Source: Deltaproteobacteria bacterium (GTDB taxonomy: Bacteria; Desulfobacterota; Desulfobaccia; Desulfobaccales; 0-14-0-80-60-11). Taken from it: a stretch of DNA of 64,000 nt. Position numbers and translations under genes: made by a program. Positions 8,490 through 63,428 of this stretch are shown in pieces (the first letter of the stretch is position 1; the number at the start of each line of letters is the position of its first letter). The notes under the pieces were generated by a model, which had not been told where the DNA came from, ran no database searches, and saw nothing but the letters and a program-made list of their open reading frames with translations. Location: NCBI GenBank assembly GCA_016875015.1, contig VGSJ01000005.1, positions 848 through 64,847 on the forward strand, written 5' to 3'.

Positions 8490-8598
8490 GGCGGCGGATT
8501 GGACCCTGCGCAACAGACGCTTGTGAACCCCGTCAGGTCCGGAAGGAAGCAGCGGTAAACAAGGCGGTCTGTGTCGCGGCGGTTTCTAATCCATCAAC
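8490..8598 (+). ncRNA. ffs: Signal recognition particle RNA (small, 4.5S type)
   Basis: Conserved domain IV sequence GTCAGGTCCGGAAGGAAGCAGC (8532-8553) with a GGAA tetraloop. Flanks pair (CTTGT 8520-8524 with ACAAG 8559-8563; GGATT 8496-8500 with AATCC 8588-8592). Ends are approximate. Confidence 0.8.
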
Positions 8599-8846
8599 CC
8601 TCTGGACACTGTCCTCGGTTGCGGCGGATTCAAAGGAGGGTGCACGGCCAGGCTGTTTTTCCGCGGTATTCCCGGGCATTCTTTTCAAAAACCCCTCAAT
8701 TTTCTGATTTCTCTCAGCCGGCCCGGCGTCGCCCTCCCCAAGGGGCCGATAGCTTGGCTTGCGGCTGGAAAACCATACCCTGGCAGGCATAAGGGAGTTG
8801 CACCTTCTGGGAGATGACTCTACCTCGCCTGCCTTCCGGAGGCAAG

Positions 8847-28743: not shown

Positions 28744-28831
28744 GCCTGGGTGGCGGAACGGGTAGACGCAAGGGACTTAAAATCCCTCGGGGTGTGACCC
28801 CGTGCCGGTTCGAGTCCGGCCCCAGGCACCA
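28744..28831 (+). tRNA. tRNA-Leu (anticodon TAA), integration target of the island
   Basis: 88 nt. Acceptor GCCTGGG/CCCAGGC, long variable arm, anticodon loop CTTAAAA (TAA at 28778-28780), T arm CCGGTTCGAGTCCGG, encoded CCA. Confidence 0.9.
28773..28831 (+). repeat. attL: 3' part of tRNA-Leu, direct repeat partner of 63371-63428
   Basis: GGACTTAAAATCCCTCGGGG(tgtga)CCCCGTGCCGGTTCGAGTCCGGCCCCAGGCACCA is identical to the right copy except for the variable-arm loop (tgtga versus ttcg). Confidence 0.85.
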
Positions 28832-38479: not shown

Positions 38480-38481
38480 GG

Positions 38482-41310
38482 TTACGTCAACCTCGGCAAC
38501 AGAACGTAAGCCCCCAAGATGTCTACGGGGAGCACGGGCTGGATGGTGACACGGCCCTTGAGGCGAGCTGACTCGCGGACGCGCTCATGGGCTGCGAGCT
38601 GAACGGTGGAACGTTCGGTGGCGACGACTTCGAGAGCCTGTTGCATTTTCGGCAGGGCTGGGAGCAAGAGGCTGAGTTGCTGGTCGACGGCGGTTCGAAC
38701 GAGGTTGCGCTCGGGCCTGGCCTGAAGAAGACGCTCACCTTCTTCCGGCGTGAGCCATTGTGGTGCGTCAGCAGGACCGGAGCAGGCGAGGGGAATGATC
38801 TCCTCGCAAAGGATGGGTTCGCCGGCGGTCTGCAGATGGTAGCGTAAGCGTACCACCAACAGCATGGTACGGGTGCTCACGGCGGAGGTGGAAATGACCC
38901 CACAGCGAGCAGCCACAGCCAGAGTGTCCCGGGCCACCGGATCAAGGGCTTGGTCGAGGGTCCAACTGGCAAGGCCCTCGACCACTGGGCCGGTGCGGCC
39001 AAGATAGATCTCACCCTTTCCCAGCGGCAAATCAAAACGGCCCGTGAAGGAGTCATCGAGGCCAATGGCCTGTCGTAAGGAGCGGGGCACTTCGTTACTG
39101 AGGTGAACGGCGATGGCTTTCCCCTTGGCTTGCACCGGGATGTTGGCCGCTTGAATTACGGTGTGGAAGAACCTGGCCACGTCTTCATTGCGGCCGATGG
39201 CGGCGCGAACGCTTTGGAGTTCTGCGGCTACGGCTTCGGGACTCAAGGTGTGCTGGGCGAACCGGGAGCGACTGGCTTTTTCACGGTCGCGGGCATTATC
39301 CCACTCGGCGTGAAGGGTCTGTTTCTTGGTCTCGAAGAGGTCGTCGAGGAAGGAAAGCTGTTGGAAGCGCTTGCCGGTCTTTTCCCGAAAGAGTGCCCCC
39401 TCGAACAACGCCTCGGCGATCTGCTCGCTGGACCCCGGTACCGCCACGGTTACACCAAGGTCGCTCTTGATAGTTTTGTGCTTGCGGATAAGGACATCGA
39501 GGATCACACCGTCGATGGGATTATCTATGCCATAGTATGTGATGACGCGGACCTCGGGCTTTTCCTGCCCAAAGCGATCAATCCGGCCTTCCCGCTGCTC
39601 GTGGCGTGTGGGGTTCCAGGCCAAATCATAATGCAGCACGGCATTGAAGTGCGTCTGGAGGTTTACCCCCTCCGCCAGACAGTCGGTACAGACGAGCACA
39701 TATTGACCCGGATCGGCAACCAGGGCCTCGATTCTTGCTTCGCGCTCAGCATGAGGCAGCAACCCAGTCACCGATTCGACTCTGACTTTGGCAGGCAAGG
39801 CCTCGCGGAAGTGCCGGGCTACATAATCGGCGGTATCCACGAACCGGCAAAAAACGATGGGTGAAAAGCCATCCTTCAGCAGCCCCTTGATCTCATGAAT
39901 GGCTCCCTGCAGCTTGTGATCCGCTTCGGGAGAGAGGGCTTCGGCTCTCCGGGCAAACTCCAACATTTTCCGACGCGTGCCATCAGCTCCGGCTTCTGAG
40001 TCCGAGCCAGGGCTGAAATCAAGGGCAACCACATCATCGGTGTCGTCCTGGTCAAGCACCGTGCGCCTACCCACTTCGTCCACTTCATTGTCAGGGGCCT
40101 CATCCACGGCAGCCCGGCTCCGAAGTGTTGCAGCGGCCGCTGCCGGGCTGGAGGAAACACAGCGCATCAATGCCAACGCCGACCAGTAACGCACCCGGCG
40201 CCGACGTTGGCTGGTATCGCTTTCCGAAACGAACTCCCGAGCGAAGGCGAGAATGTCATCGAAGAGGGAGCGATATTCGTTGCTAAAGCTGTAAGTTGGC
40301 TCAGGGATCTTGTCGTACCGCTTGGGGAAAGACGTATCCGTCTGAAGGTAGTGTTTAATGTCACCACGACGACGCTGCACTAAATGTTTTGCCAGCTTGC
40401 GGCGAATTTCTTCCCTTCCGGCCCGGTCAAGGTCCATGGGCAGGCTTGCAAACTCTTCATCAAGTAAGCTGAGAAGAGAACGAAATGCCTCTTCGTTGCC
40501 GCTGTGGGGCGTGGCGGTGACCAGGACCAGATGCCGTGATTTGTTCTTGGCGACACGCCGCAGCAAATCAAAACGCTGCTGGCGTCCTCGTCCAACACCA
40601 CCGGCCAAGGTACAGCCATGGGCCTCATCCACAATAACAAACTCGGGACATTTCAGGATGAAGTCCTCAGCCCGGCGTGGGGTCTTGATAAAGTCGGTGG
40701 AGACGATGGTAAAGCGGTGGCGGTCAAAGACCGAAACGCCGATCGGCAGGTCGCGCTCCAGTCGTTGGATGGTACTGCTCAGAACCAACTCGGCCTCGAC
40801 ATGGAACTTCTCGGTCAGCTCACGTTGCCATTGCTCGGCCAAATGAGGTGGGCAAAGTACTGTCATCCGCTTGATTTCGCCACGGTCAAGGAGCTCGCGG
40901 GCCAACATTGCGGCCTCAATGGTTTTGCCTATGCCTACATCGTCGGCGATCAAAAGGCGCACGGGGTCGAGTTTAAGCCCCATCATGAGCGGCACGAGCT
41001 GATAGGGCCGGGGCTCAGCAGCTATGCGGCCGAAGCTCCGGAAAGGACCAGCGGCTGCACGAGTAGATAAACGCGCTGCCTCGCGCAAGAGCTGGCCTGA
41101 GGTAAAGTCCCCGAGGTCAGCCTGAGTGGGCATTTTGAAAGTCGCTGACGCGACAGGCTCAACAGCAGGTAGGATGCCAGTGGTCTCTTCGTCGAGTCCC
41201 CCTAAGGGTCGCACAATGAGGAGGTCATCCGAAGAGTCGGGTAGCACTAACCATTCGCGGCCACGCGCATGTATGAGGGTGCCGGGTTTAGAAAGGGGGG
41301 CAGTGCTCAT
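38482..41310 (-). CDS. drmD: SNF2-family helicase (DrmD-like)
   Basis: 942 aa. DDVGIGKTIEAAML (motif I), VIVDEAHGC (DEAH), AWNPTRHEQREGRIDRFGQ (motif VI). Its start overlaps the upstream helicase gene by 4 nt. Confidence 0.8.
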   Translation of the reverse strand: MSTAPLSKPGTLIHARGREWLVLPDSSDDLLIVRPLGGLDEETTGILPAVEPVASATFKMPTQADLGDFTSGQLLREAARLSTRAAAGPFRSFGRIAAEPRPYQLVPLMMGLKLDPVRLLIADDVGIGKTIEAAMLARELLDRGEIKRMTVLCPPHLAEQWQRELTEKFHVEAELVLSSTIQRLERDLPIGVSVFDRHRFTIVSTDFIKTPRRAEDFILKCPEFVIVDEAHGCTLAGGVGRGRQQRFDLLRRVAKNKSRHLVLVTATPHSGNEEAFRSLLSLLDEEFASLPMDLDRAGREEIRRKLAKHLVQRRRGDIKHYLQTDTSFPKRYDKIPEPTYSFSNEYRSLFDDILAFAREFVSESDTSQRRRRVRYWSALALMRCVSSSPAAAAATLRSRAAVDEAPDNEVDEVGRRTVLDQDDTDDVVALDFSPGSDSEAGADGTRRKMLEFARRAEALSPEADHKLQGAIHEIKGLLKDGFSPIVFCRFVDTADYVARHFREALPAKVRVESVTGLLPHAEREARIEALVADPGQYVLVCTDCLAEGVNLQTHFNAVLHYDLAWNPTRHEQREGRIDRFGQEKPEVRVITYYGIDNPIDGVILDVLIRKHKTIKSDLGVTVAVPGSSEQIAEALFEGALFREKTGKRFQQLSFLDDLFETKKQTLHAEWDNARDREKASRSRFAQHTLSPEAVAAELQSVRAAIGRNEDVARFFHTVIQAANIPVQAKGKAIAVHLSNEVPRSLRQAIGLDDSFTGRFDLPLGKGEIYLGRTGPVVEGLASWTLDQALDPVARDTLAVAARCGVISTSAVSTRTMLLVVRLRYHLQTAGEPILCEEIIPLACSGPADAPQWLTPEEGERLLQARPERNLVRTAVDQQLSLLLPALPKMQQALEVVATERSTVQLAAHERVRESARLKGRVTIQPVLPVDILGAYVLLPRLT

Positions 41311-44300
41311 TTAACTGGCCTCCCGAAGATGTCAGGATGGCGGAGGAAGATCTCGATCCAGTTTGCCATGTGGTGGAAGCGGATAACGATGTACCCCATC
41401 TCCATCAACCTCTGTGTAATGGTCTCGTCCTCGCGGAGTTGGGCCGGCTCATCATGCGGCGGTCCGTCGATATAGATGGCGGCAGCATGTTCACGATAGA
41501 AGAAGTCGGGACGGGTGGCGCAGGATTCGATCAGATACTGAGCCTCACTCGGAGGTCGGAGCACGAGGTCGTCCAAGAGGTCAAGCCAGCGCTTCTCTAA
41601 CTGACTGTCGCACCGCTTGCGTAGCGCGGCCATTCTTTCGGTACGGGAGCCAGCACCGCCCGCAGGGCGGCATACAGAGGAAGCCAGGTCGACTAACAAG
41701 TTGCGAATGAGATGGCGGTCGAGGTCTTTATGATCCGGCTGGTTGCCGTAATCGAGAAGGCACTCATAACACCCCTTGCCGCAGGTCTGTATGGCTTTGT
41801 CTTCCAGCGTATGGGGGTCAAAGTGACAGATATCCAAAGCAGCCCGGGCCAGCAGCGGCAACACGGTGGGGTCTTCAGCAATTTGGCGCAGTACGCCGGC
41901 GCCGCCTTCGGATGCCTCATAAAAGAGAATTTCCCGACGGTCTTGGGGTGAAGGCATCGGTTCGCACGAGAGTTCCCGAGGCTCAAGCTGGAAATGCTTT
42001 TGGATGGCCTCCTTGAACGCGGCCTGCAGGCTCGCCATCTCCGGACCCGAACGGGGTGGTTCGAATTGCATCACCAGAGCGTTCTTGGTGTCCCTTACAT
42101 AAGGCACCACGCGCTGGATCCGCCCTTGGGCGGTGGCATCGTCAGAGTCCTCTTCGTCTGCCTGGTTGCGCGACCAATAGCCCCTTTCCAGATCAAGATT
42201 GAACCCGGGAGGCTGATTGCCCCTCTGATTGGCCCAACCAAGGTTGATGCGGTAGAGGTCAGTGGCGTCGCCGTAGCTGAGGCGCAAAGCAAGGTCATCG
42301 CCGCAGTACACTTCCGCGTCTTTGCGGTCCAGCATACCACCGATTTCCGGGAATCGATAGGAAGTGACGAGTTTGTAGCCGAACCGCTGCCTTTCCTCTT
42401 CATCGCAGGTAATACGCTGGGCAAGTTTGAGGCTGACATTCTGCAAATGAACCAGATTATCGATTGTAGCAGATCCGTCCAGGGCATCGCCGCAGCGGTC
42501 GCAAATCTCGGTGAGGTTGGTTCCCTGCTCTAAATGGGCATAACCACATTTTAGGCAACGCTTCATCGTGGCGGTCACCAAATCGTGGGTCGCTTCGATG
42601 TCGTCAGTCCCGAAGTCGAGATTGACTTTGTAAACCCGGTAACGGGCTCCTTCGTGGTAGATCAAGGCGCGGGGGCCAAACTCGGAGATCGCCAGGAAAC
42701 GGGGGCGGGAGACGAACTCATCGCGGCTCTTACGTTGGCGGCGACCAGGTACATAAGCTGAAAGGGGCAGGCGCGGAAAATTATAACCTGGCAGAAACCC
42801 CTCAGCCGCGAAATAGCGGTAGGAATAGAAGTCGCCTTCATACATACCCTCGGCTTCGGTAAGCAAGCGGATCTGGCTCTCCGCCTGGGCGCGCAAGCGC
42901 CTGGACTGATTGCGCTCGCCCTCTGGTCGTGCATGGTCGCCGATGATCCTGTGATGCAACTCTCGCTGGCGGAGGGCAGCACGATAGAGGCTACGCCAGC
43001 GTTCGCAAGAATCATCAAAAGAACGCTCAATCTGGTCGAGGATTTCTTGGGTCCAGTTTTCGTGAAACCAAGCTGCTGATGACAGTTCGTTGAGGATACT
43101 GCTGACAAGTTGGTTGGCTTTGGAAAGCGCCCCAGCGCGGTGAGTCGGATTCCTTAGTTCCCGGGCAATTGTGTCTTTGACGGGGAGCGGAAGCCTTCCA
43201 TTGGAATGGGTGAGGTCAAGCACCGTGGCAAGTGTTTTACCCAGGTCCGGCTTGGCTACTTCCATCCAGACGGCGTGGACATGGGAGCGCACCAGATCCC
43301 GGTTGCGGATATCGATACGCGGCGGGGCCACCGAACCCGCAACCATATGGTTCGGCTGGCGAAAATAATACTGATCGTGAGGGCTGCGGCCAGCGCAATA
43401 GGTGTAGACCAGGGCCGGCTGGCCACCACGTCCGGCCCGCCCGCTCCTCTGGGCATAATTGGCCGGCGTCGGGGGGACGTTGCGCAGATTGACGAGGTTT
43501 AATTGGGCGATATCCACTCCCAATTCCATCGTCGGTGAGCAGAAAAGGAGGGGCAAATCGCCATTGCGAAAGCGTTCTTCGCGCTCTTCCCGGTCTTCAG
43601 ATGCCACCTGGGCAGTATGTTCACGGGCTTCGAGGACGCATTTCAAATCAACGAAACTGCGGTAACATTCCACGAAATAGTGGTTGACCTCTTGTGGAAT
43701 CTCTCCCGCATCCAGGAGCCGGGTCCGGTCTAACGGGCGGGCAGCACCCTCTCCAGGCAACCAGCGCAGGGCGTCAGGATTGATCTGGTAACCGGGCACT
43801 TCACCACTGCGTACCTGTTCGACAACCCCATAGCGTTTAAGAGCGAGAAATAGAAAACGGATGGCTCGATCAACATCATCGCGGCCCAAGCTCTGCCCCA
43901 GGGGTACGTGGGGGGCCAGTGATCGTTTTAGATAGCGCCCATATCCGCCGTAGGATGAAATAAAGAGCCCGATACGATCTTCTTGTCTCCGGGGCCTGGG
44001 ATAAGCGACAACGGACTTTACAAGCTCACGCGCATCCTCAAGATACCACACGGTATCTTCAAGGAGTCGCGGTTTAGTTTGCTCGACCAAGTCGAGCTGC
44101 CGCTGAGGGTCAAGGACATCGACCTTAACAGCCAGAGATCGGCGTAGAACATCTAGAAGGGTCCGGAGTAGTTCCTCACGTACTTCCGTAGGACAGGATC
44201 GCAACGTTGCGGGTACCTCAACGAACTCTTCGGTTTCTCGGTTGAATCGAACTGAGAATCCGGCTTCCCAAAGCTCGGTCTCGGCAAGTAGCCCATCCTC

Positions 44301-46562
44301 TCCTCTCAAACCATCATAGTCGAAGACAAGCAGACCGCAATCTTCAAGATTCGGCGCGGTCACGCGCCAACCACGCTGCAAGTCGCGATAGAGGTAGTAA
44401 TCGATGACGCGGCGAAGGGCATCATTAGTGGCGTGCTTCGCCGGGCCGCGCACCTCGGGATCGGCAGCGTATTCGTCGAACCGAAGCTCCATGGCTTCGA
44501 AGACACTGCGCGATAGATCGCCATGGACCAATCCCCGCGGACCTTTATTCCGGGCTGCTTTATAAAGTGCCGAACGCAAAAGGGACACTTGAGCAAAATC
44601 GTTGAAGTGGCCGGCCTGCAATGAAGCGTCCTGCCGGTTGTCAGTAAAACTTAGGAGCTTGCGAGCCTCAGGGGTGAGGTCACGGTCGCCTTGCAGCTCG
44701 ATGAGCGACCGGACTGCCATGATCGTAGTGGCGGTGCTGCGGTTGTCGACACCAAGGGTTGCCAATTTCGGGCGCTCGGAGCGCTGGGTCTTGGTGTAAG
44801 CGACCCCGCATGAGGGATGGAGACAAAACAGAAAGTTCCGGCGGATCAGCGCTGCTGGGATGCCATGCTCTTGGGACATTAAATGGCCCCGGGTGTCGAT
44901 AAAAACAGGCTCGGGGAGATCACGGCGGGCATCAGGTCGTATACGTTCCTCGCCTTGCGGTGTGGTCTCCTTCATAAACGCAGGCAAGCGCTCCAGCACT
45001 TCTGGACCATCAAGCAGTGGCCATGGTGCGGATTCGGACACATAGAGGTATGCATCGCCGCTGCCGTCATCACCTTCCTCACGGCGGTCCTCTCTGGGTA
45101 ACAGGGCTGTGCCGTGCTCATCGGTGACCGCCCTCACGCGGTAGTAGGCAGTACCGCATTGCCGGCAAAAAACTAGGGGGAATAGGGGCTTGTGGGGCTC
45201 ACCGGGTTTGGCGACCTTCTTAGACATCTCGAGGTGACGTTCAGCCTCGGGCTCAATGGTTGCCCACACCGTGTCGCCGCGGGTAAAGAATTGATGGAGG
45301 CGAAACGCAAAGATGGGGAAACGGCTGGACTCGCTTCGACGCAGTTCACACCCCTTGAGCAGAAAACGGCGCAGCACCGCGGCGCAACGTGCTTGGTCAG
45401 TTGAAGTAATCTGCTCAAGTTCCTCCGCGGCACTACCCTCACCCTGTAAGCGCCGGGGTTCCTGACGGACCAGTCCTCCGGTATCCGCTTCAGCCCGTAC
45501 GCCGAAGGTGGATTCAATCCAGGAAGCCAACGGATGGGTACGGAAAACATCATAGCTATCCGGTGGAGGTGCACCTGTGTCGACGGTGTCGAAAAGTTTT
45601 TGGATAACCAGTTTGTCACCAAAATCCATTTCTGGTGTAGCACGCTCGAGAGTTTCTTCGACAACTTGAGAGGTATCGAATGGGATGCCAAATAGTGTCT
45701 GGGCGACCTTCGCCACCTCGGCTTTTTGTTCTTCGGAGGATCCTCCGCTGACCATCGTGGCTGATGTGCCGATGCAAATGATGTTGTGGCCGCCGAAGGC
45801 TAGACGACAGCGCCGGATCAGAAGAGCGACATCCGCTCCCTGGCGTCCCCGGTAGGTGTGGAGTTCATCAAAAACAAGGAAACGCAATCCCTGGGCAGAC
45901 CGGACCAACTCCCGATCCTCTCTGCGGGTGAGCAGCAACTCTAGCATCATATAGTTGGTGAGTAGGATGTCAGGTGGATTACTGCGGATCGCCTCCCGCT
46001 CGGCACCCTTTTCTTGCCCGGTATAACGGGCAAAGCTGACGGGGGGCTTTCCTTCCGGGTACCCCTTCTCAAGAAACTTTTTGAGTTCTTCATCCTGGCT
46101 GTTGGCCAGGGCGTTCATCGGATAAACAACGATAGCCTGGATGCCCTGACCCGACCCATTCCGTAGAACGTGGTCAACGATAGGAACGATATAGGTCAGG
46201 CTCTTCCCCGACCCCGTGCCGCTGGTAAGCACATAGGACTTGCCTACTTTTGCCTTGAGGATCGCCTCCCGCTGATGGGTGTGGAGCAGGAGCTGCTTTC
46301 CGGTGTGGTCGGTATCGGATTTGTCGATCCTAAAAATCCTGGCGCACTCGGTATGAAGCGTACCTTCGGCCACCATTTCATCGATCGTGCCTCCAGGCAG
46401 GAAGGTAGGATTGAGTTGAAGGAGAGGCTCTGGCCAAAACGCTCCTGCATCCAGATTTAGGTTCACCATGTCCGAAATACGGGGGTCGGCGATTTTGATG
46501 AAGCTACGCGTGTAATTTGCGTAGTCGCCAACAAGACGATCCCGGAGATCGAAAACGTTCAT
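41307..46562 (-). CDS. 1751-aa DExH helicase with DUF1998/MrfA-type Cys clusters and a C-terminal DUF559/Vsr-like endonuclease-fold domain (fused DrmA+DrmB-like)
   Basis: LTSGTGSGKSL (Walker A), LVFDELHTYRG (DExH), YAQRSGRAGRGGQ (motif VI). Cys clusters CLKCGYAH..CDRCGD and CGKGCYECLLDYGNQ. C-terminus RPDFFYREHAAAIYIDGPPHDEPAQLREDETITQRLMEMGYIVIRFHH. Confidence 0.75.
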   Translation of the reverse strand: MNVFDLRDRLVGDYANYTRSFIKIADPRISDMVNLNLDAGAFWPEPLLQLNPTFLPGGTIDEMVAEGTLHTECARIFRIDKSDTDHTGKQLLLHTHQREAILKAKVGKSYVLTSGTGSGKSLTYIVPIVDHVLRNGSGQGIQAIVVYPMNALANSQDEELKKFLEKGYPEGKPPVSFARYTGQEKGAEREAIRSNPPDILLTNYMMLELLLTRREDRELVRSAQGLRFLVFDELHTYRGRQGADVALLIRRCRLAFGGHNIICIGTSATMVSGGSSEEQKAEVAKVAQTLFGIPFDTSQVVEETLERATPEMDFGDKLVIQKLFDTVDTGAPPPDSYDVFRTHPLASWIESTFGVRAEADTGGLVRQEPRRLQGEGSAAEELEQITSTDQARCAAVLRRFLLKGCELRRSESSRFPIFAFRLHQFFTRGDTVWATIEPEAERHLEMSKKVAKPGEPHKPLFPLVFCRQCGTAYYRVRAVTDEHGTALLPREDRREEGDDGSGDAYLYVSESAPWPLLDGPEVLERLPAFMKETTPQGEERIRPDARRDLPEPVFIDTRGHLMSQEHGIPAALIRRNFLFCLHPSCGVAYTKTQRSERPKLATLGVDNRSTATTIMAVRSLIELQGDRDLTPEARKLLSFTDNRQDASLQAGHFNDFAQVSLLRSALYKAARNKGPRGLVHGDLSRSVFEAMELRFDEYAADPEVRGPAKHATNDALRRVIDYYLYRDLQRGWRVTAPNLEDCGLLVFDYDGLRGEDGLLAETELWEAGFSVRFNRETEEFVEVPATLRSCPTEVREELLRTLLDVLRRSLAVKVDVLDPQRQLDLVEQTKPRLLEDTVWYLEDARELVKSVVAYPRPRRQEDRIGLFISSYGGYGRYLKRSLAPHVPLGQSLGRDDVDRAIRFLFLALKRYGVVEQVRSGEVPGYQINPDALRWLPGEGAARPLDRTRLLDAGEIPQEVNHYFVECYRSFVDLKCVLEAREHTAQVASEDREEREERFRNGDLPLLFCSPTMELGVDIAQLNLVNLRNVPPTPANYAQRSGRAGRGGQPALVYTYCAGRSPHDQYYFRQPNHMVAGSVAPPRIDIRNRDLVRSHVHAVWMEVAKPDLGKTLATVLDLTHSNGRLPLPVKDTIARELRNPTHRAGALSKANQLVSSILNELSSAAWFHENWTQEILDQIERSFDDSCERWRSLYRAALRQRELHHRIIGDHARPEGERNQSRRLRAQAESQIRLLTEAEGMYEGDFYSYRYFAAEGFLPGYNFPRLPLSAYVPGRRQRKSRDEFVSRPRFLAISEFGPRALIYHEGARYRVYKVNLDFGTDDIEATHDLVTATMKRCLKCGYAHLEQGTNLTEICDRCGDALDGSATIDNLVHLQNVSLKLAQRITCDEEERQRFGYKLVTSYRFPEIGGMLDRKDAEVYCGDDLALRLSYGDATDLYRINLGWANQRGNQPPGFNLDLERGYWSRNQADEEDSDDATAQGRIQRVVPYVRDTKNALVMQFEPPRSGPEMASLQAAFKEAIQKHFQLEPRELSCEPMPSPQDRREILFYEASEGGAGVLRQIAEDPTVLPLLARAALDICHFDPHTLEDKAIQTCGKGCYECLLDYGNQPDHKDLDRHLIRNLLVDLASSVCRPAGGAGSRTERMAALRKRCDSQLEKRWLDLLDDLVLRPPSEAQYLIESCATRPDFFYREHAAAIYIDGPPHDEPAQLREDETITQRLMEMGYIVIRFHHMANWIEIFLRHPDIFGRPVK

Positions 46563-48063: not shown

Positions 48064-48105
48064 TGTTGCACCCTCCATAGTAAGGAATGTTTTTTACTAT
48101 GAAAG

Positions 48106-48337
48106 TTGCACGCAATATGCCTATCTACTCGATATTACATATAATTTAACACAAGCAAAACATAATACGGTTAATGAGTTACACACGTTTCATTATATTT
48201 ATACTGACCTTACACAACGCAACGTGCTGGTAATGCAGTATTTTATACTTGCCATATCGTTGTTGCTTTTTAATAACCTTTTGCGTAATACGTAGTTGAA
48301 GTTACGCAGTACAATTTGCTTGACCATTACAACGCAA
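48106..48337. promoter_or_regulatory. AT-rich divergent control region with at least 5 TTAC(n)CGCAA-type repeats (iteron/operator-like)
   Basis: TTGCACGCAA 48106-48115; TTACACAACGCAA 48210-48222; TTGCGTAA 48281-48288 (inverted); TTACGCAG 48302-48309; TTACAACGCAA 48327-48337. Confidence 0.35.
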
Positions 48338-48622
48338 AATACAAGTAATTGCACCAAGTTATAGAATATAATTAACCAATAATGTCTTAGGACTTGAACA
48401 ACGAGAATGGCACCACATCAAACTATTTGCATATAAGCCCCTGTTGGGTTGAGCTCATTCATAGCCTGTTGATCTTCGTAGGTTCCTGGAAATTATGCGC
48501 CTGATAGAGATGGCGTCTTCGAAGGGGCAGGCGGTAAAAGATTGAATCTGCCAATACCCGCATGGTAGGATGCGTTAGTCAAAGCTTATCAGGGTGTCGT
48601 CAATGATTTTGGGGGGATAAAG

Positions 48623-50233
48623 ATGAACATCAATTATGACAAGCTCAAGAAGGTTATCGAAGTCTACGCCGAGCCCTGGTGGGCAGGAGAAGTTGAGTCA
48701 AAATGGCCTTGGCGTAAAGGTGGGGGGGAAATTCACGTTCAGGAAAGAGTGCTAAAGAAGGCCGCTCCCTATCTTACAGAGGATTCCTTGCGGAAAGACC
48801 CCAAAGATAGCGTAATGAGTGCCTTGAAAACCCACTTTAACTTACTCTCCCAGTTTGAATTCATGTTTGCCAAGACCTTTATCGACCAGGTTTACGGCGA
48901 TGAATTACGGGACCGGGTCCTGGACCTTCTGTACGGTCCCGAAGACCTGGGAGCCAGATTAAGGAAGTTTCTTAAATGGGCCAAGCTTGAACCGGTACCT
49001 GATAAGAAGATAAAGAAGGGCATGAGCGCCACCGTAGCAAGTTACCTTTTAGCAATGTCGAACCCCCGGCAATATCCCTTTTGCAAGCCAGTCGCTTACG
49101 ACAGGGCAGTGACGGAACTCCTTGGCAAAGACGCAGTCCGGCGAGATTCTGTAGAGAGAATCCTTCACTGCCAAGAGGTCTATTCGGCAGTTCTCGATTT
49201 TCTTGAAAGAGAACACGGTCTTGTTGATGGCAACCTTCTGGATGTTCATTCAATGTTATTTTGTTGCCAAGAAAAGGATAAGGACGGAATTTCCGGTTGG
49301 GACAAAGTTGGCAAACCACCGGTTGGTCCAGAACCACCTATTCCTCCACAAACTTATAATCCCTTTTTCGACCTGCTCTTTGAAAGGCATAATCTGGTGT
49401 TTTACGGTCCCCCCGGCACCGGCAAGACCCGGGATGCCCTCCTTTTAGGTAGATGGTGGAAAAATACGTACGGGCCTGAAACTGTCAGTCAGATAACCTT
49501 TCATCCCTCTTACTCCTACGAAGATTTTATCGAAGGATTCCGCCCCACCGAAGATGGCTCCGGGTTTGAATTGAGAAGCGGCATTTTTAAAAAGCTTTGC
49601 CAGAAGGCCGCCGCTGCTCCGGACAAGAAATTTCTGATCATTATTGATGAGATAAACCGAGGTGATGTGGCCCGCATCTTGGGGGAACTCATAACTCTCC
49701 TGGAAGGGGACAAACGCGGCGAGCTTCACCAGGCAATGCTCCAACAGTCGGGAGAGGCTTTCTTCGTTCCTGAAAATTTATATGTTCTGGGAACCATGAA
49801 TACAGCCGACAAGAGCATCAGCCTCATGGACCTGGCCATCAGGAGACGCTTTCTCTTTCATTATTTTCCCCCCGACCCTGACGTGCTGGACGAAGGGAGA
49901 GACTTCTTGGATGAAGTTGAGAATATCAGGCTGTCCCGCCTGCTCATCGGTTTGAATCAAAGGCTGATGGATGTGGGAGTGGACCGCGATCGGGTTTTGG
50001 GGCATTCCTTCTTCATGATTTCCCGAAAAACCGCGGACCCGCTCCTTACCTTAAAGAATCGCTTCCGATACGAAATTGTGCCACTGGTAGAAGAGTACTG
50101 TTATGCCGATCGCTCCCTTATGGCCAGGGTTTTGGGCGATCTGGTGGAAGTCAATGGTGCGGTAAATGCGGACGTCCTCGAAGACAACGAAAGATTTCTA
50201 TCGGTCCTCCAGGTCTTGAGTGATATTGAATGA
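48623..50233 (+). CDS. mcrB: McrB-like AAA+ (GTPase-type) restriction subunit with an unrecognised ~250-aa N-terminal domain
   Basis: VFYGPPGTGKT, IIIDEINRGDVARILGELITLLE, LGTMNTADKSISLMDLAIRRRF. Confidence 0.85.
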   Translation: MNINYDKLKKVIEVYAEPWWAGEVESKWPWRKGGGEIHVQERVLKKAAPYLTEDSLRKDPKDSVMSALKTHFNLLSQFEFMFAKTFIDQVYGDELRDRVLDLLYGPEDLGARLRKFLKWAKLEPVPDKKIKKGMSATVASYLLAMSNPRQYPFCKPVAYDRAVTELLGKDAVRRDSVERILHCQEVYSAVLDFLEREHGLVDGNLLDVHSMLFCCQEKDKDGISGWDKVGKPPVGPEPPIPPQTYNPFFDLLFERHNLVFYGPPGTGKTRDALLLGRWWKNTYGPETVSQITFHPSYSYEDFIEGFRPTEDGSGFELRSGIFKKLCQKAAAAPDKKFLIIIDEINRGDVARILGELITLLEGDKRGELHQAMLQQSGEAFFVPENLYVLGTMNTADKSISLMDLAIRRRFLFHYFPPDPDVLDEGRDFLDEVENIRLSRLLIGLNQRLMDVGVDRDRVLGHSFFMISRKTADPLLTLKNRFRYEIVPLVEEYCYADRSLMARVLGDLVEVNGAVNADVLEDNERFLSVLQVLSDIE

Positions 50234-51606
50234 TCAACCCAAAGAACCAGGTTCGAAAAACGATTGACCTCGCCGAGTATGGTGAAATTACCATCCCTGC
50301 GGCTGATCTATCCTTTCTTTCGGAACAAAAATTTCAGACGGTTTGTGAAACTCTTAGTTCCCTGGTGAACATATCCTTTGGCTGGGGAGGGGGCCATCTC
50401 TCTATAAAAGCCGGATCGAATGTGGGGGTGATCCAAACACACGGCCTGCGGGTTCAAGTCCGTCCAGCCCTTTCGGTCAAAGAGATGGTGGTTCTCATTC
50501 GTTACGCCCTGTCCGGCAAGGTTCCACTTCAACATCTTAGGTCTTTTGCGGACGTTGATTGGGGAACCGGATTTGAAGATGTGCTCTGCATGATGCTGTG
50601 TGAAGAGTCCAGGGAGATCCTCAGGATAGGGCTTTCCTGCCGCTATGAGGAAAGACGTGAGCCTCTAACTTTTCTGAGGGGAAGGCCACTCTGGGAGAAG
50701 AACTTTCCCTGGCGCGGAGGCAAGACCAGGGAGTTGACTTGCCGCTATCACCGGCTCACCTATGACAATATAGATAACCGCTTGCTTCTCGTTGGCCTGA
50801 GGTCTGCCGGTCATCTCGCCACTTCTGAGGCCGTCAAAAGGAAAGTATTCCAGTTTGTAAAGACTATTGGCGATCTTGCTTCAGAGACCACTCCGGAGCC
50901 CGGGCAATTCGATCAGGCCGAACAAAGATACAACCGCTTAACCGAGCATTATCGCGCCGCCCATGGTCTGTGCAGAATGCTGATCTACAGCCTTCGTCCG
51001 GAATCACTTTATGAAAGTGGAAAACACCAAATATTTGGGATCGTTTTGGACATGGCCTGGCTTTTCGAGAAATTCATCGAACAGCTTATGGCAGAGACCT
51101 TGAAACCGGCCGGATTTAACATCGAATCCCAGGCGCCAGACCGGAAGGCCTTGCTCGATGCCGAAGGTTACCCCTATGTTTCGGTCCGCCCAGACCTGAT
51201 AATTTCTCAATCCCGGACAGTATGCGGAGTCATCGACGCCAAATATAAGCGATACTGGCCGACGGCCACAAACAGCTTTGCCCCTATGCGAAAAATAGCA
51301 AACGAAGACATCTACCAGCTCTTCTTCTATCAACAACGCCTACAAAGAAAGTTCAATTTACCAACCCCGCCCGTCGCTGTCATCGCCGCCCCCCTGCCCG
51401 AAGAAGATGAGCGGGGCGATCAGGCGGTTATTGCCGAAAGATTCAAACGAGTTGTTTGGCAGGCTGGAGCAGAGAAAGCTGGTGATGTGAGGCTCATATT
51501 AATCCCAATGACAAAATTCCTCAGGTTGATTATTCAAAGAGAAAAGCCAGGTGACATTGTGGAGAAAATCGGCCTTAATCGTATAAGGGATTTATTTCGT
51601 GATTAA
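50230..51606 (+). CDS. mcrC: McrC-like nuclease subunit
   Basis: ATGA overlap with mcrB. PD-(D/E)xK motif VRPDLIISQSRTVCGVIDAKYKRY near the C-terminus. Confidence 0.8.
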   Translation: MINPKNQVRKTIDLAEYGEITIPAADLSFLSEQKFQTVCETLSSLVNISFGWGGGHLSIKAGSNVGVIQTHGLRVQVRPALSVKEMVVLIRYALSGKVPLQHLRSFADVDWGTGFEDVLCMMLCEESREILRIGLSCRYEERREPLTFLRGRPLWEKNFPWRGGKTRELTCRYHRLTYDNIDNRLLLVGLRSAGHLATSEAVKRKVFQFVKTIGDLASETTPEPGQFDQAEQRYNRLTEHYRAAHGLCRMLIYSLRPESLYESGKHQIFGIVLDMAWLFEKFIEQLMAETLKPAGFNIESQAPDRKALLDAEGYPYVSVRPDLIISQSRTVCGVIDAKYKRYWPTATNSFAPMRKIANEDIYQLFFYQQRLQRKFNLPTPPVAVIAAPLPEEDERGDQAVIAERFKRVVWQAGAEKAGDVRLILIPMTKFLRLIIQREKPGDIVEKIGLNRIRDLFRD

Positions 51607-54043
51607 TCAGAGCAATAAGGATCAAATGACTCTTTTGCTAAAGGCCAGGCATGTGGCCTCATGGCAACTGCCAAAGCTTGCTGATAATAATACGTTGCCA
51701 TGTACCGCTACTTTGCCTGCTCTTCAAAGGGGAGCGGTATGGAAGCCTGCCCAAGTCGAGGCACTGTGGGATTCACTATTACGAGGTTTCCCAATAGGTG
51801 CCTTCCTGCTCGCCCCATACTATGAAGAACGCGGGAAACAAAGGTTTCGCTACCAGGAATCTATGGATTCACCACTCATTAATAATATCTCTGACTTTCA
51901 TCTCCTTGACGGCCAACAACGATGCAATGGAATCACGCTTGGATTCCTTAATTCATGGATAGCACTGGAGTACAATGTGCCAGCAGCCCTTTGGGTAGAT
52001 TTGATACCTCCTGACCCCCAGGATGAGCGTGGCTTTATTTTCCGTGTCGTGACAAGGTCTCATCCCTGGGGTTACCGACGCAACGACCCTACCCAGCGCT
52101 TGGAAGCGAAACATCGTCGAGCTGCTTTGTCTGCCTACCGGGATGCAAACAACAGTGCGAATTTGGGAAGCCAAGACTATCTCTGCATCGGTCAGGTGAA
52201 TCTTTCGCTGGTCTGGCCATGGGACGCCAAGGCTCCTGTGCCGTTCCCTTTGCTCATCGAAGCAGTCATTTCTGGGAACGACAAAGTTTGGGAACTATTG
52301 CAATCCAAGCTTGGAAACTTGTTGCCTTATTGGTCTGGTGCAGAAGACCTCCCATGCCTCAATGGAAATTGGAAGACTCGGGTTGAAAACCTTCTAAAGA
52401 ACCCAAGTCATCATATGGATCGTATTGTTGAAGGGATAAGGAGAATTGAGGGAACTGGCGAGGAGATCCCTTCAGTTCTTATTCCTGCACTAATCCTTCC
52501 TGAAGAAGTAGTCATAGAACCAATCGCTGTTCCAAGGGAAACAGACCAAGAGGCCATAGAAGATAACCCAGACGTCTCCCTGCAACATGATCCCATCGAG
52601 ACCTTATTTATTCGGGTAAACTCAGCTGGCACACCACTGGTCGGTGAAGAGCTGATCTACTCTATCTTAAAGTCCATATGGCCTGACGCCCAAGGTTTTG
52701 TGGAGTCATTAAGTACCCGTTTCATGACGCCCTCCCGGCTGGTTATGCTCCTCTCGAGACTTATCCTCGCCCGAACGGATACTGGACGTGAGAGGGTTCC
52801 TGCTCCTCCGGATGTGGGCCGGTTCCGGCGGCTGATCCACGGGCGTGATTCCCAATGTCCTGATTTTCGCCAGCGCCTAAAAGAATCCTTAGCAAGGGGG
52901 GAAGCGGAGACGCTATTCAACGTCGCACGGAACTTGCTGGTTGGGACCAAGGCGGATATCCAATATCTGCTTCCACCTGTATTGGCAGCAGATATGGCCC
53001 ACAGGACACCCCCGGAAGCTTTCTTTTTTCTTCTGTCATGGCTTGATCGAATGCAACAGGCAAGCCTCGATCCTCTGAGAATTAGTATAAGCGCACATAA
53101 AAGGATGATAGGAGCCTTAACCGCCCTTAGCTGGTTTGCGAATAAGGCGACCGATTGCCTCAACACATTATGGAGACGCTTAAATAGATTGGAACCGCAT
53201 AATCTTCCTAAATTTTTTTCTAAGGGCGTGCTTAAGTCCTGCATAAGATTGACTGATCGCCGAGAAATACAGCTCTTGCCTTTGGCTCCCCCGGATATTC
53301 TCCAAAGTGCTGTGGAGGAATCGATAACAGAAGCCAGAGGCTATCGGACTCCCAACAGCAATTTCTGGCGAGAATGGAGGTGGTGGGAGCGCTTCTCTGG
53401 GACTTTTAAGTATAAAGAGAGTATGAAAAGCTGGTACTTAGAAAATCTGGCATCCTGGAAGCGCGAAGAAGAAGGTCAAGAAATCATTCTCGATGCCTGG
53501 ACGAAATTGGCTGATGTTCTATGGGGAAAGCGAGAACTGGTCCTTTATGCCCAGCGCAAATATCTGGTGGACTGGTTTCCAAAGCATGATCCAGCAAGTC
53601 CAGATCAATTAGAAGACACAGATCGGCCATGGGACATGGACCACATACATCCCCAAAAATATATATATGGCAGATGGAATATACCGCTTATCATCAAGGA
53701 CTGGCATGGTTCGATTGGAAACTTACGCGCCTGGCCCCTGGAGGCAAATCGTGCTGATGGCGAAGAGCCCCCTTGTAAAAAGCTATCGCAACCAGCAGAG
53801 ATAAAAGAGCATTACGGCCTTACAACAAGCGAACAGGTTCATAAAGCAAGTTTCATTGGTAGTGAATGGCCTCAATGGAAAGAATCTACACCCGCCCAAG
53901 ACTGGTTCCATGCAAACTACCTCGCTAAAACCGAGGAGTATCCTTCATGTCGAGGGGCTTTGATTCAGGCTATCACAGCTAGATGGGTCGCACTCTACAG
54001 AGAGTGGTATGAAACGCTCTTGGTCGGAGATTTATTCGGCTAA
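51599..54043 (+). CDS. DUF262 + DUF1524 (GmrSD-like) type IV restriction-type nuclease
   Basis: GTG start overlapping mcrC by 8 nt. The N-terminus shows LPALQRGAVWKPAQVEALWDSLLRGFPIG and HLLDGQQR (DUF262/ParB-like). The C-terminus shows WDMDHIHPQKY..GNLRAWPLEANRADG (His-Me/DUF1524). Confidence 0.8.
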   Translation: MINQSNKDQMTLLLKARHVASWQLPKLADNNTLPCTATLPALQRGAVWKPAQVEALWDSLLRGFPIGAFLLAPYYEERGKQRFRYQESMDSPLINNISDFHLLDGQQRCNGITLGFLNSWIALEYNVPAALWVDLIPPDPQDERGFIFRVVTRSHPWGYRRNDPTQRLEAKHRRAALSAYRDANNSANLGSQDYLCIGQVNLSLVWPWDAKAPVPFPLLIEAVISGNDKVWELLQSKLGNLLPYWSGAEDLPCLNGNWKTRVENLLKNPSHHMDRIVEGIRRIEGTGEEIPSVLIPALILPEEVVIEPIAVPRETDQEAIEDNPDVSLQHDPIETLFIRVNSAGTPLVGEELIYSILKSIWPDAQGFVESLSTRFMTPSRLVMLLSRLILARTDTGRERVPAPPDVGRFRRLIHGRDSQCPDFRQRLKESLARGEAETLFNVARNLLVGTKADIQYLLPPVLAADMAHRTPPEAFFFLLSWLDRMQQASLDPLRISISAHKRMIGALTALSWFANKATDCLNTLWRRLNRLEPHNLPKFFSKGVLKSCIRLTDRREIQLLPLAPPDILQSAVEESITEARGYRTPNSNFWREWRWWERFSGTFKYKESMKSWYLENLASWKREEEGQEIILDAWTKLADVLWGKRELVLYAQRKYLVDWFPKHDPASPDQLEDTDRPWDMDHIHPQKYIYGRWNIPLIIKDWHGSIGNLRAWPLEANRADGEEPPCKKLSQPAEIKEHYGLTTSEQVHKASFIGSEWPQWKESTPAQDWFHANYLAKTEEYPSCRGALIQAITARWVALYREWYETLLVGDLFG

Positions 54044-58114: not shown

Positions 58115-58423
58115 TCACTGATCACCCCTCGGCCTCTCTTTCAAACCGGGATAAAGCTCGGTTAGCAGGTGCCAGTCGCAACTCGCGCACAAATCCCTCC
58201 CCTCTGGGTCAGGGATGAACATCGCCCCTCCGCATTTTTGGCAATAACACCGCAGGAAGAACAACACCTCGTCCCTGCACTCTTTCACCAATTGCAGGAG
58301 AGGCCGCACTTGGCCGGGATCGGGTTGGCCCTGGCCTTCAAAACGCCAGCGCAGCCGCTCCCCCGCAGCTTCAAAGCGATAGCCCAGAGCCGTCAGTTTC
58401 ATCGCCGCTTCCCCGGGTTTCAT
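58115..58423 (-). CDS. Hypothetical protein with a C-terminal zinc ribbon
   Basis: CYCQKCGG...CASCDWH. 4-nt overlaps with both neighbouring genes. Confidence 0.5.
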   Translation of the reverse strand: MKPGEAAMKLTALGYRFEAAGERLRWRFEGQGQPDPGQVRPLLQLVKECRDEVLFFLRCYCQKCGGAMFIPDPEGRDLCASCDWHLLTELYPGLKERPRGDQ

Positions 58424-60960
58424 ATCTCGCCCTCCAGGAGGTCGTCCTCCGCCGATATAGAATATGTAGGGAATTTAGCGTCCGAAGCGTCCTTAGCGTC
58501 CATCTCCCCGATTTTCCTATCTTTATCCCTGGGCGCTTCTTTTTGCGAAGCGTCCGGGTGGGTGGCGGAAGCGTCCAAGTTGGGGGAAGCGTCCACGGAA
58601 GCGTCCGGCGGATTTACAGATTCCTCCTGCCCTTGGGCGCTGTGGGCGCTCCGGACGCTTTTTTCACTGCCCTTTCTAATTGTTATCTTCCGGTCGCCTG
58701 ATTTGGAAAATTCTACCTCCAGCCCCACCTTCCGGAGAAAGGTGGAAGCCCGCTTCAACCGGTTGGAGAGGATGTGGGCCGCTTTGGGCCAAACCTTGCT
58801 TCGCTTAGTGGATTCCGGGATGAGTGCCTCCAGAGCCTCCAGCAATACTGAGGCATTTCCTACCCAGGAATCCCTTTCAGCCATGAGTAGCCGAACAGCC
58901 ACCGCCACCTGGTCAGCTTCCAGGCTCTGCTCCACCACTGCACTGCGGTTGCCGGTATAGGCCTCCAGAAAACTTCCTGACGGCCACCCCAGAACAGGCT
59001 CGGCGGCTGTGACCCAGATGGCAAAGTCGGCCATGCGTGGCAGGGCGTCAAGGCGCACCTGATCATGCTTCGCTAGGCATCCAACTACCGCGTCAAAAAG
59101 GGCTCCCAAAATGCGGGGTCTGGCTTTCTCAAATTCTCGCCAGAAGGTCTTCTCTGGGAGCCTGTCTTCATCCTCTATTTGAGGGAGGTCGATAATTACG
59201 GCCCGGTCGGCCAAGTCTTGCTTGGTAACCAGCGAAGTGATGCCGTTAAGAACTATAGGGCGCATGGACTCGAAGAGACATTCCTCGACGTCGGTGTAGA
59301 GCTCTCTCGTTCCGAATCCCCCGCCGGTGGATAACCGGCAGAAGGCATCCGTCACCCAGTCCGGCAGGGTGCTCAAGTTATCAAAAGTGAGGCACCATGA
59401 GTTATTGGCGGCGATCATTAAATCCCGAACCTCTTTGGGGACGCTCCGCAGAGGCGCCGTGCTGGGATCAAGAAGTAATTTCAACAACCTGGCGGCCGTA
59501 GTCTTCGCTGCTCCCTGCTCACCCTGAAGCGCCAGTATGGGAAAGGGGCCCGGGGAGAAAGCGGCGATCAGGATGGCCACGAACAGGCGCCAACACCTCT
59601 CCGACTTGACATTTAAAAACCGCCGCAGTTCTTTTAGGCTGCCACCCCGCTGGGGGAGAGGCAACGCTGCCATCCCCTTGGAGCGGCGGAATTTCACCGG
59701 TGGGTTGGCAACTACGTGCCATCCTTGCGCGGTGATTTTTACCGCTTCCCAGGTGGGGGTGCCCAGGTCAACAAAGACAGCCTCCGGGGTGTGAGCCACT
59801 CGGACGTGAACCGACAATTCGGGGCCATCGAACAGGGCACGGGATTCCAGGACTCCCAGGGCATCCTGCAGGGCCTGGGCGTTGGGAGCCTTGTTTTTAA
59901 AGGTCTTGTAGAATCGCCCCCTCAACCAAAGGCGAAATCCCTTCGACCGCACCGGCCAAGTCTCCCGGTGATCATCGACCGGCACCGTTACATAAGCGGT
60001 CTTGTCGGGGGTGTGAAAAAACTCTGCGTCTGCGGCCAAGCCGATAAGGAGCTCGGACTGGGTGGGCTTGGCATCTCCGGTGACAGGCTGCTCCTGGTCT
60101 GCCGGTGAATTACACTCAGATGTCGACTCTATGAGAGCCAGTAGCTGCTCTTTGGTTCCACCGCGCTTGAGCCATTCGGAGATATCGCCTTTCTCGGGGA
60201 GGTCCGGGAGTTCCACCACCTTCACGGTCGCCGCGATGCCGTGAAGGTGCCGGGCCACGTCCTGGGCGTGTTTACGACCCGGCTCGTCGTTGTCGGGGAT
60301 GATGACGACCTGTTTATCCTTGAAGTGTTTATTGTAATCGGCCCGCCACTTTCCGGCGCCCTGAGGGTTGCAGGTGCTCGTTAGGCCAAACTCAACCAAG
60401 GTGTCGCAATCTTTCTCTCCCTCAGGGATAAGGACCATCTCGGCCTTGAGCACCTCCAACAACCGGTAGGGTACCAGGACCACACCGTCCAGGTTGTTGA
60501 CCCATCCACCCTTAGCGTCTGGCCGGCGTTGGAAGAAGCCCTTGGGATGAGTCCGGCAAACCTGAAATACCAGGACGCCATCTTCATCGCAGTAATCGTA
60601 GGTCTTAACAATTTGGGGTGCCGCCTTACCTTCCTTCTTTCCCCGCCGCCGACCGTTCCCCCTGGCATTCTCTATGCCCGCCTCCTGGGCCAGGATGTCG
60701 AGTGCCCCTTTAAAATCTGTGTCGTATTTTTTCCTGATGAAGGTGAAGACATCCCCCTTGGCGCTGCAAGCCTTGCAATTCCACAGGCCGGTCTTCAGGT
60801 TGAGTGATAGCGAGGCCTTGGTGTCTTTATGGAAGGGACACAGCCCCAGGGCCTGGTCGCCCCTTCCATTCTTCAACTCACCCAGCTCCTTGTGGTAGAG
60901 GGCTCGGATGTCGAGGTGGGCGAGGATTTCAGCCTTTAAATCCATAGTAATCTCGGCCAA
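58420..60960 (-). CDS. Primase-helicase (CHC2 zinc finger + Toprim + P-loop NTPase), P4-alpha-like architecture
   Basis: CPFHKDTKASLSLNLKTGLWNCKACSAKGDVFTF (CHC2), VLIPEGEKDCDTL and VVIIPDNDEPGRKHA (Toprim), LQGEQGAAKTTAARLL (Walker A-like). Confidence 0.8.
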   Translation of the reverse strand: MAEITMDLKAEILAHLDIRALYHKELGELKNGRGDQALGLCPFHKDTKASLSLNLKTGLWNCKACSAKGDVFTFIRKKYDTDFKGALDILAQEAGIENARGNGRRRGKKEGKAAPQIVKTYDYCDEDGVLVFQVCRTHPKGFFQRRPDAKGGWVNNLDGVVLVPYRLLEVLKAEMVLIPEGEKDCDTLVEFGLTSTCNPQGAGKWRADYNKHFKDKQVVIIPDNDEPGRKHAQDVARHLHGIAATVKVVELPDLPEKGDISEWLKRGGTKEQLLALIESTSECNSPADQEQPVTGDAKPTQSELLIGLAADAEFFHTPDKTAYVTVPVDDHRETWPVRSKGFRLWLRGRFYKTFKNKAPNAQALQDALGVLESRALFDGPELSVHVRVAHTPEAVFVDLGTPTWEAVKITAQGWHVVANPPVKFRRSKGMAALPLPQRGGSLKELRRFLNVKSERCWRLFVAILIAAFSPGPFPILALQGEQGAAKTTAARLLKLLLDPSTAPLRSVPKEVRDLMIAANNSWCLTFDNLSTLPDWVTDAFCRLSTGGGFGTRELYTDVEECLFESMRPIVLNGITSLVTKQDLADRAVIIDLPQIEDEDRLPEKTFWREFEKARPRILGALFDAVVGCLAKHDQVRLDALPRMADFAIWVTAAEPVLGWPSGSFLEAYTGNRSAVVEQSLEADQVAVAVRLLMAERDSWVGNASVLLEALEALIPESTKRSKVWPKAAHILSNRLKRASTFLRKVGLEVEFSKSGDRKITIRKGSEKSVRSAHSAQGQEESVNPPDASVDASPNLDASATHPDASQKEAPRDKDRKIGEMDAKDASDAKFPTYSISAEDDLLEGEI

Positions 60961-63240: not shown

Positions 63241-63370
63241 ACTATGCAGAAAATAACCCCCATTTTCCTGCATTTTCCCGCCTTGGCCCAAAATAGCGAT
63301 TGACAGGTTAACTGGTTGTATTTACAATATCTCTTGGCGTCCCGAATTGCCCCAAAAAATCCCGATTTAA

Positions 63371-63428
63371 GGACTTAAAATCCCTCGGGGTTCGCCCCGT
63401 GCCGGTTCGAGTCCGGCCCCAGGCACCA
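63371..63428 (+). repeat. attR: displaced 3' fragment of tRNA-Leu
   Basis: A 58-nt copy of the tRNA from the anticodon stem to CCA with no 5' half. The flanking AATATCAA is also shared with the left copy. Confidence 0.85.

Follow-up and report, generated by a model that had tools for sequence, protein, structure and literature searches.

GmrSD-type enzymes are common neighbours of McrBC-type restriction systems (PMC11090510), and a phage that escapes the GmrSD-like TgvAB system by loss of glucosylation becomes sensitive to McrBC (PMC11014532). BrxU acts independently of the BREX system in which it is embedded (PMC12707154, PMC8565348). Here we describe a locus in which an mcrBC pair is followed immediately by a gene of the GmrSD/BrxU family, whose product combines DUF262 at its N-terminus with a predicted His-Me nuclease at its C-terminus. 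The locus lies in a stretch of 64,000 nucleotides (nt) from a Deltaproteobacteria bacterium (contig VGSJ01000005.1, positions 848 to 64,847), referred to below as the window. The original prediction, made from the letters of this DNA, had taken the three genes for a composite Type IV restriction operon. The analysis reported here makes it quite probable that they are two independent Type IV modules placed head to tail, joined locally within a mobile defence island, rather than a novel, conserved system of three parts. The locus comprises the following features, with lengths in amino acids (aa) and open reading frames abbreviated as ORFs:

48079-48622, no strand assigned: AT-rich region 5' of mcrB, 544 nt, 38% GC
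48623-50233, + strand: mcrB, intact ORF
48623-49357, + strand: McrB N-terminal domain (aa 1-245), all-alpha fold, putative modified-base sensor
49358-50233, + strand: McrB AAA+ GTPase motor, by AAA_5, NCBIfam McrB and PDB McrB profile matches
49406-49429, + strand: McrB Walker A, GPPGTGKT, motif intact
49646-49666, + strand: McrB Walker B, DEINRGD, motif intact
49796-49816, + strand: McrB signature MNTADKS (NxxD), motif intact
50230-51606, + strand: mcrC, intact ORF with an ATGA overlap with mcrB, encoding the McrC endonuclease subunit (PF10117, 1.3e-40; NCBIfam McrC, 1.1e-17)
51187-51195 (RPD) and 51232-51249 (IDAKYK), + strand: McrC PD-(D/E)xK motif, by motif reading
51599 or 51626 to 54043, + strand: gene for the DUF262 + His-Me nuclease protein, complete ORF of 814 or 805 aa
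51599-54043, + strand: single-chain GmrSD/BrxU-family Type IV enzyme, N-terminal DUF262 and predicted C-terminal His-Me nuclease
51908-51922, + strand: DUF262 motif DGQQR, aa 104-108 in the 814-aa numbering
53633-53653, + strand: His-Me motif DMDHIHP, by motif reading
53717-53761, + strand: GNLRAWP...EANR, by motif reading

The three ORFs and the identities originally proposed for them hold. By their sequences, the first two genes are an ordinary McrBC Type IV restriction system. McrB contains an AAA+ domain (Pfam AAA_5, aa 257-410, 1.8e-14) with Walker A, Walker B and the Nx(xx)D signature. The NCBIfam McrB model matches aa 241-497 at 7e-46, below its equivalog cut-off, and the McrB family profile matches the PDB McrB chains 6hz4, 6ut3 and 7vsr (E. 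coli, T. gammatolerans) at E ~ 1e-70. The adjacent gene encodes McrC, with its DUF2357/McrBC domain and a PD-(D/E)xK motif. The stop codon of mcrB and the start codon of mcrC share the ATGA at 50230-50233, as predicted, and all homologous mcrBC pairs examined overlap by the same 4 nt.

The third protein is, as judged by sequence and by its structural model, a Type IV enzyme of the BrxU/GmrSD type, with BrxU as the best match in both. Pfam places GmrSD_N (DUF262) at aa 38-129 (2.3e-16), and this N-terminal, ParB/Srx-like domain carries the DGQQR nucleoside triphosphate (NTP)-binding motif. The protein had also been assigned DUF1524, and here only part of the earlier assignment stands as given. 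Pfam did not detect DUF1524/GmrSD_C in the window protein at E ≤ 0.01; the C-terminal nuclease is instead predicted from a D-x-D-H-I-H-P ... G-N-L-R-x-W-P ... N-R block, the expected His-Me signature, which is invariant in the family, from PF07510 in several relatives (faint or precomputed matches) and from the fold. The family profile matches BrxU 7P9K at 1.5e-18. A Foldseek search with the AlphaFold2 model (predicted local distance difference test score, pLDDT, 82.6) returned full-length BrxU at the top (E 3e-7, probability 1.0), followed by the SspE C-terminal domain 7dri (probability 0.87). PADLOC HEC-05 matches were restricted to the N-terminal domain. The window protein retains every family-invariant residue, and contigs of four or more samples contain identical copies. 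The original prediction had considered 814 aa unusually long, which is true relative to BrxU (587 aa); the length is normal within a subfamily of proteins of ~ 770-850 aa, for which 439 of the scored candidates matched and 169 genomic stretches were confirmed. Scans of viral contigs returned two distant DUF262 relatives only.

The co-occurrence of the three genes was surveyed from both partners. From the DUF262 side, 80 reference-genome loci with 8-kb flanks, 59 of them with at least 3 kb upstream, were searched with iterated hidden Markov models of the window McrB and McrC and then with a relaxed phmmer search (E ≤ 10). Neither McrB nor McrC was found within 8 kb of a DUF262 homologue in any of the 80 loci (0 of the 59 informative ones), and the relaxed search yielded just two marginal AAA matches. 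Starting from McrB, the survey took in 80 metagenomic loci with this gene, of which 73 have McrC and 26 extend at least 2.5 kb downstream of mcrC; a DUF262 relative was found in none of the 73 (0 of the 26 informative ones). A conserved McrB-McrC-DUF262 triad is thus not seen among the surveyed relatives of either partner. DUF262 relatives occur without any constant partner in this neighbourhood survey. The recurrent neighbours are a WYL/WCX regulator immediately upstream (15 of 80 loci) and a DEDD exonuclease (15 of 80), and at 4-5 of the 80 loci the gene stands between PglX (upstream) and PglZ (downstream) of BREX, which is the position of BrxU. Because of these WYL, DEDD and BREX neighbourhoods, the family appears to embed habitually in other defence operons, and the placement between PglX and PglZ suggests that the long DUF262 subfamily is a BREX-embedded, BrxU-like gene in some phyla. 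Genes like the DruE-like helicase, SNF2 helicase or methylase genes of the window were near DUF262 relatives at 0 of the 80 loci.

In five loci of Verrucomicrobiota/Prosthecobacter (L031, L035, L045, L047 and L061), DUF262 relatives of ~ 28-29% identity come after a PglX-like methylase and overlap the PglZ start by 16-19 nt.

The nearest relatives give the same picture at closer range. DUF262 relatives at 78% and 75% identity lie 10-31 nt after a WYL regulator and are without McrBC, as are those at 64% and 53% identity. The McrB relatives at 86%, 81% and 59% identity belong to two-gene mcrBC operons followed by unrelated genes. Sample SRR19962010 contains relatives of both modules, mcrBC at 86% and the DUF262 gene at 75% identity, on separate contigs and in separate contexts. 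The closest McrB (88%) is that of a sister lineage, L173 (contig SRR20820566_280771), in which gene calls give mcrB and mcrC only. At the DNA level, L173:3700-3935 (equivalent to window 51599-51830) retains 85% identity to the 5' end of the window DUF262 gene for ~ 230 nt past the mcrC stop; this remnant is interrupted by three in-frame stop codons, and beyond it the homology ceases. The L173 mcrB (536 aa) and mcrC (458 aa) are intact. The junction common to the window and L173 therefore predates the split of the two lineages, and the decay of the DUF262 gene beside an intact mcrBC fits independent modules and speaks against an obligate triad. The composite triad of the original prediction thus did not survive the co-occurrence survey and the decayed L173 copy.

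In another contig, L174:2045-9796 (ERZ27245902 k141_105663), two overlapping ORFs (501 + 309 aa) together make up a DUF262 homologue of 75% identity, and this split may represent a GmrS/GmrD-like division or a frameshift. A DruE-like helicase of 1722 aa, with 39% identity to that of the window, lies in convergent orientation to it, a single case in which the arrangement differs. L174 was considered as the window arrangement minus mcrBC, and this was rejected: its upstream 222-aa ORF is unrelated to the 235-aa ORF of the window.

The junction between mcrC and the DUF262 gene depends on the start codon of the latter. With GTG 51599 the product has 814 aa and the gene overlaps mcrC by 8 nt (51599-51606), the overlap of the original prediction; with ATG 51626 the product has 805 aa and a 19-nt gap follows mcrC. 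Public gene calls choose the ATG, and their 805-aa product is exactly P0001. An AAGG(G/A) Shine-Dalgarno-like motif precedes each candidate. The 27 nt between the two codons show DNA and protein homology to the N-terminus of the closest relatives, P0002 and P0003, the stretch reading MISQSHQHQTTLLL in these relatives vs VINQSNKDQMTLLL in the window, and P0002/P0003 carry ACG where the window has ATG 51626. Because the homology spans this stretch and the equivalent of the ATG is an ACG, GTG 51599 is a plausible start. The gap is at most 19 nt whichever start is used. Homology among mcrC relatives stops at the mcrC stop codon, and homology among DUF262 relatives spans the gene from the GTG/ATG-equivalent codon to the stop codon. 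The window mcrC stop (TAA, 51604-51606) falls within the conserved 5' end of the DUF262 gene, and McrC therefore ends in ...RDLFRD in the window vs ...KELFY in the relative L170.

No terminator- or promoter-like site that might uncouple the third gene was found between mcrC and either DUF262 start. The promoter of the whole cassette is probably located in the 544-nt AT-rich region upstream of mcrB (48079-48622), which has a GC content of 0.381 vs about 0.57 in the flanks and contains one weak sigma-70-like site (48178-48205); a search of this region against Rfam gave no match. Rfam and repeat searches across the cassette found nothing, and folding of the 75-nt spacer 3' of the DUF262 gene showed no significant terminator hairpin (z = -0.41). 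Co-transcription of mcrBC with the DUF262 gene is probable from this tight packing, and of the single co-translated unit proposed earlier this much is retained, whereas the triad working as one unit is not.

We infer the substrate classes and the complementarity of the two modules as follows. In the first module modified DNA would be recognised by the N-terminal sensor of McrB; McrB would assemble into an AAA+ hexamer powered by GTP and travel along the DNA, and the PD-(D/E)xK nuclease McrC would then make the cut. In the second, the DUF262 NTPase/sensor domain would govern the C-terminal His-Me nuclease, which would cut modified DNA alone. In this lineage the end of mcrC has been fused to the DUF262 gene precisely at the start codon of the latter, which has lost its own upstream region, including the WYL regulator of its closest relatives; with that regulator lost, the gene would most likely be expressed by read-through from the mcrBC promoter. 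The benefit would be additive: the modules would cover different DNA modifications, so that a phage escaping one module by a changed modification would be exposed to the other, and a physical partnership of McrBC with the DUF262 protein would not be needed. The codon-exact junction and the decayed sister copy may then represent a snapshot of a stand-alone Type IV gene captured under the promoter of a neighbour and later lost.

Several observations weigh against two independent modules. The surveys cover mostly distant relatives, and many metagenome contigs are too short to reach the downstream gene. The GC contents of the three genes are alike (0.49-0.50) and below those of the flanks (~ 0.57), which also fits acquisition as one unit; the GC content at third codon positions (GC3) of the Type IV genes is 0.47-0.55, and GC and GC3 cannot separate joint from separate acquisition. 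The junction, be it an 8-nt overlap or a 19-nt gap, is tighter than usual between neighbouring defence systems. Finally, the same junction is found in two lineages that are 12% apart in McrB, and has thus persisted for some time. One rival explanation is a true three-component system in which the DUF262/His-Me protein is a third subunit, a second nuclease or an extra sensor, translationally coupled to McrC and working with the McrB motor. The possible overlap with mcrC from GTG 51599, the lack of a separate promoter or terminator in the searched junction, the loss of the WYL regulator and the recurrence of the junction in L173 would all agree with it, and three-gene McrBC variants such as LlaI and BsuMI exist (bioRxiv 10.64898/2026.08.31.748284). 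We nevertheless consider such a system very unlikely. The surveyed relatives of either partner contain no triad, L173 has kept mcrBC while its DUF262 gene decayed, in LlaI-type systems the third gene lies upstream and encodes a DNA-binding subunit rather than a nuclease, and both modules have complete sets of catalytic motifs with which, by analogy to McrBC and BrxU/GmrSD, each could act alone. The more elaborate proposal, that an McrBC with an inactivated glycosylase-like domain as its sensor has acquired the DUF262/His-Me nuclease as a third, translationally coupled subunit, is highly improbable; if true, one motor would serve two different nucleases and a wider range of hypermodified DNA targets.

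Two further explanations concern the DUF262 gene itself. Its product might be SspE- or DndB-like, sensing a phosphorothioate or other host mark and restricting DNA without that mark. The Foldseek match to the SspE C-terminal domain and the DUF262-DUF1524 architecture that SspE shares (PMC8713573, PMC12707154) are in line with this; both sequence and fold match BrxU better, and the island ORFs scanned and the recurrent neighbours of the DUF262 family included neither sspABCD nor other ssp/dnd modification genes, so that this explanation, too, has little probability. Alternatively, the adjacency may be functionally neutral, produced by recent recombination or deletion in a defence island, with the DUF262 gene on its way to being lost. 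Its lineage-specific occurrence, the decay in L173 and the mobile setting would be expected, whereas the complete window ORF with all its family-invariant residues, and the identical copies in several samples, would not, and neutrality appears a slim prospect. Two self-sufficient modules joined locally remain the best explanation of the locus, whose only unusual feature is the tightness of the junction, lineage-restricted and decaying in the sister lineage.

The N-terminal domain of McrB had been noted as a stretch of ~ 250 aa that could not be recognised, and a Pfam search of these ~ 245 residues indeed gave no match even at E ≤ 1. The AlphaFold2 model is of high quality (pLDDT 92.8) and consists of 12 helices. 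A profile search among 1.84e9 proteins returned 109 cluster representatives. Nine relatives were scanned with Pfam; eight carry the McrB-type AAA_5 domain, and several pair the N-domain in tandem with EVE or MrcB_N. Because these partners are modified-base readers, the domain appears to behave as a sensor module. A Foldseek search of the PDB gave no significant match (best E 0.03, template-modelling (TM) scores 0.25-0.37), with ~ 40 of the top 50 matches being HhH-GPD glycosylases (MutY, EndoIII, archaeal/Thermotoga Ogg, MagIII, Mig). The N-domain family is without an invariant Asp; Cys154-Lys155-Pro156 is invariant and follows the invariant Gly133 by ~ 21 residues, which would place it roughly where HhH-GPD enzymes have their catalytic Asp. 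An hhalign comparison of the N-domain profile with E. coli EndoIII (Nth) was not significant, a profile search of the PDB returned nothing relevant, a BFVD search returned nothing, and scans of viral contigs showed no relatives of the domain. In END nucleases an inactivated EndoIII/Ogg domain ('iEndoIII') is reported to sense hypermodified bases, and fusion to a 'McrB-like GTPase' is mentioned (2025 preprint, PMC12191111). We lean slightly towards the McrB N-domain being a sensor of this type, in which case it is of a kind already described. The domain family is rare and without Pfam annotation, and may be a glycosylase-derived reader of hypermodified bases; knowing its target biochemically would give McrBC enzymes a further specificity class, and this sensor is the lead at the locus that most deserves biochemical work.

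The cassette resides on a 34.6-kb integrative island extending from ~ 28.8 to 63.4 kb of the window, with the following features:

28744-28831: tRNA-Leu(taa), left end of the island
28866-30074: tyrosine integrase, just after the tRNA-Leu
34295-46562, - strand: DISARM-like three-gene system, upstream of the mcrBC cassette
34295-38479, - strand: DrmMI-like N6-adenine (m6A) methylase, 1394 aa
54119-56163: tandem pair of ADP-ribosylglycohydrolase genes, immediately downstream of the Type IV genes
58420-60960, - strand: gene close to the right island end, 846 aa, DnaG-type CHC2 zinc finger plus weak Toprim domain
63370-63428: repeat of ~ 58 nt of the tRNA-Leu 3' half, 34.6 kb downstream of the tRNA

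The tRNA repeat includes a 25-nt exact match that was reproduced in 0 of 100 shuffles, and the GC content of the island is lower and more variable than that of the first 16 kb of the window. The DISARM-like trio contains the m6A methylase that the original prediction had placed in this island, and it is reasonable that the Type IV modules would have to tolerate its mark. The second member is a 942-aa SNF2 helicase (PADLOC DpdE 3e-238, DrmD 3e-79). The third, a DEAD helicase of 1751 aa that carries an MrfA Zn-binding (DUF1998) domain, has its best PADLOC matches to Druantia DruE and looks like a fused DrmA-DrmB equivalent; the type of the system, DISARM, Druantia or Dpd-like, is ambiguous. No clear terminator was found before the two ADP-ribosylglycohydrolase genes, which have a host-like GC3 (0.64-0.69); elsewhere neither module is associated with such genes (1 of 80 loci). 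Against the Tri1 ADP-ribosylarginine hydrolase model the second of them reaches 320 bits, short of the cut-off of 490. The 846-aa CHC2 protein is probably the replication/primase gene of the island, its PADLOC matches to DRT-associated 'RTasDnaG-like' models covering the primase part only. The chromosomal part of the window includes a bacterial large signal recognition particle (SRP) RNA gene at 8385-8647 (Rfam RF01854, 144 bits).

Comparison with described systems places each module in a known class. The first resembles the McrBC enzymes of E. coli and Thermococcus gammatolerans in its AAA+ GTPase with Walker A/B motifs and the NxxD signature (MNTADKS), its PF10117 McrC with PD-(D/E)xK and its ATGA overlap. 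It differs in an N-domain unrelated to the E. coli MrcB_N or the T. gammatolerans YTH-like domain, and its NCBIfam scores are far below the equivalog cut-offs. As to the iEndoIII-sensor fusions, the N-domain model retrieves almost only HhH glycosylases and the family has no invariant Asp at the expected catalytic position; the likeness is weak (E ≥ 0.03, TM ≤ 0.37), and sequence profiles did not confirm it. LlaI, LlaJI and BsuMI also comprise three consecutive genes including McrB-like and McrC-like subunits. Their extra gene is upstream and encodes a separate DNA-binding subunit with site specificity, whereas that of the window is downstream and encodes a complete nuclease of the GmrSD family; the window McrB has its own 245-aa N-domain, and the upstream R1 arrangement is not seen.

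The second module shares DGQQR and a predicted C-terminal His-Me nuclease with BrxU, the GmrSD-family enzyme of BREX islands (PDB 7P9K), and some of its relatives stand between PglX and PglZ. In contrast to BrxU, it is ~ 220 residues longer (805/814 vs 587 aa), with ~ 13% identity over the structural alignment, Pfam detects no GmrSD_C in it, and its gene is embedded behind McrBC and not in BREX. Its probable DUF262 + DUF1524 architecture is likewise that of the glucosyl-hydroxymethylcytosine-dependent GmrSD/Eco94GmrSD and TgvAB (PMC11014532, PMC4437046); TgvAB is also embedded in another restriction operon (Type I) and complements McrBC in function (PMC11014532, PMC4437046), but needs two DUF262 proteins, where the window locus has one. 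The neighbourhoods of Type III-A CoCoNuT McrBC systems, in which GmrSD and Druantia-type helicase systems are common (PMC11090510), recall the window McrBC with its flanking DruE-like and GmrSD-like genes, the latter McrBC being without the coiled-coil and tandem-nuclease features of CoCoNuTs. A composite system is not supported; the locus adds a new member to known kinds and illustrates once more how defence genes accumulate in an island and how genes of the GmrSD/BrxU type become embedded in the operons of other defence systems.

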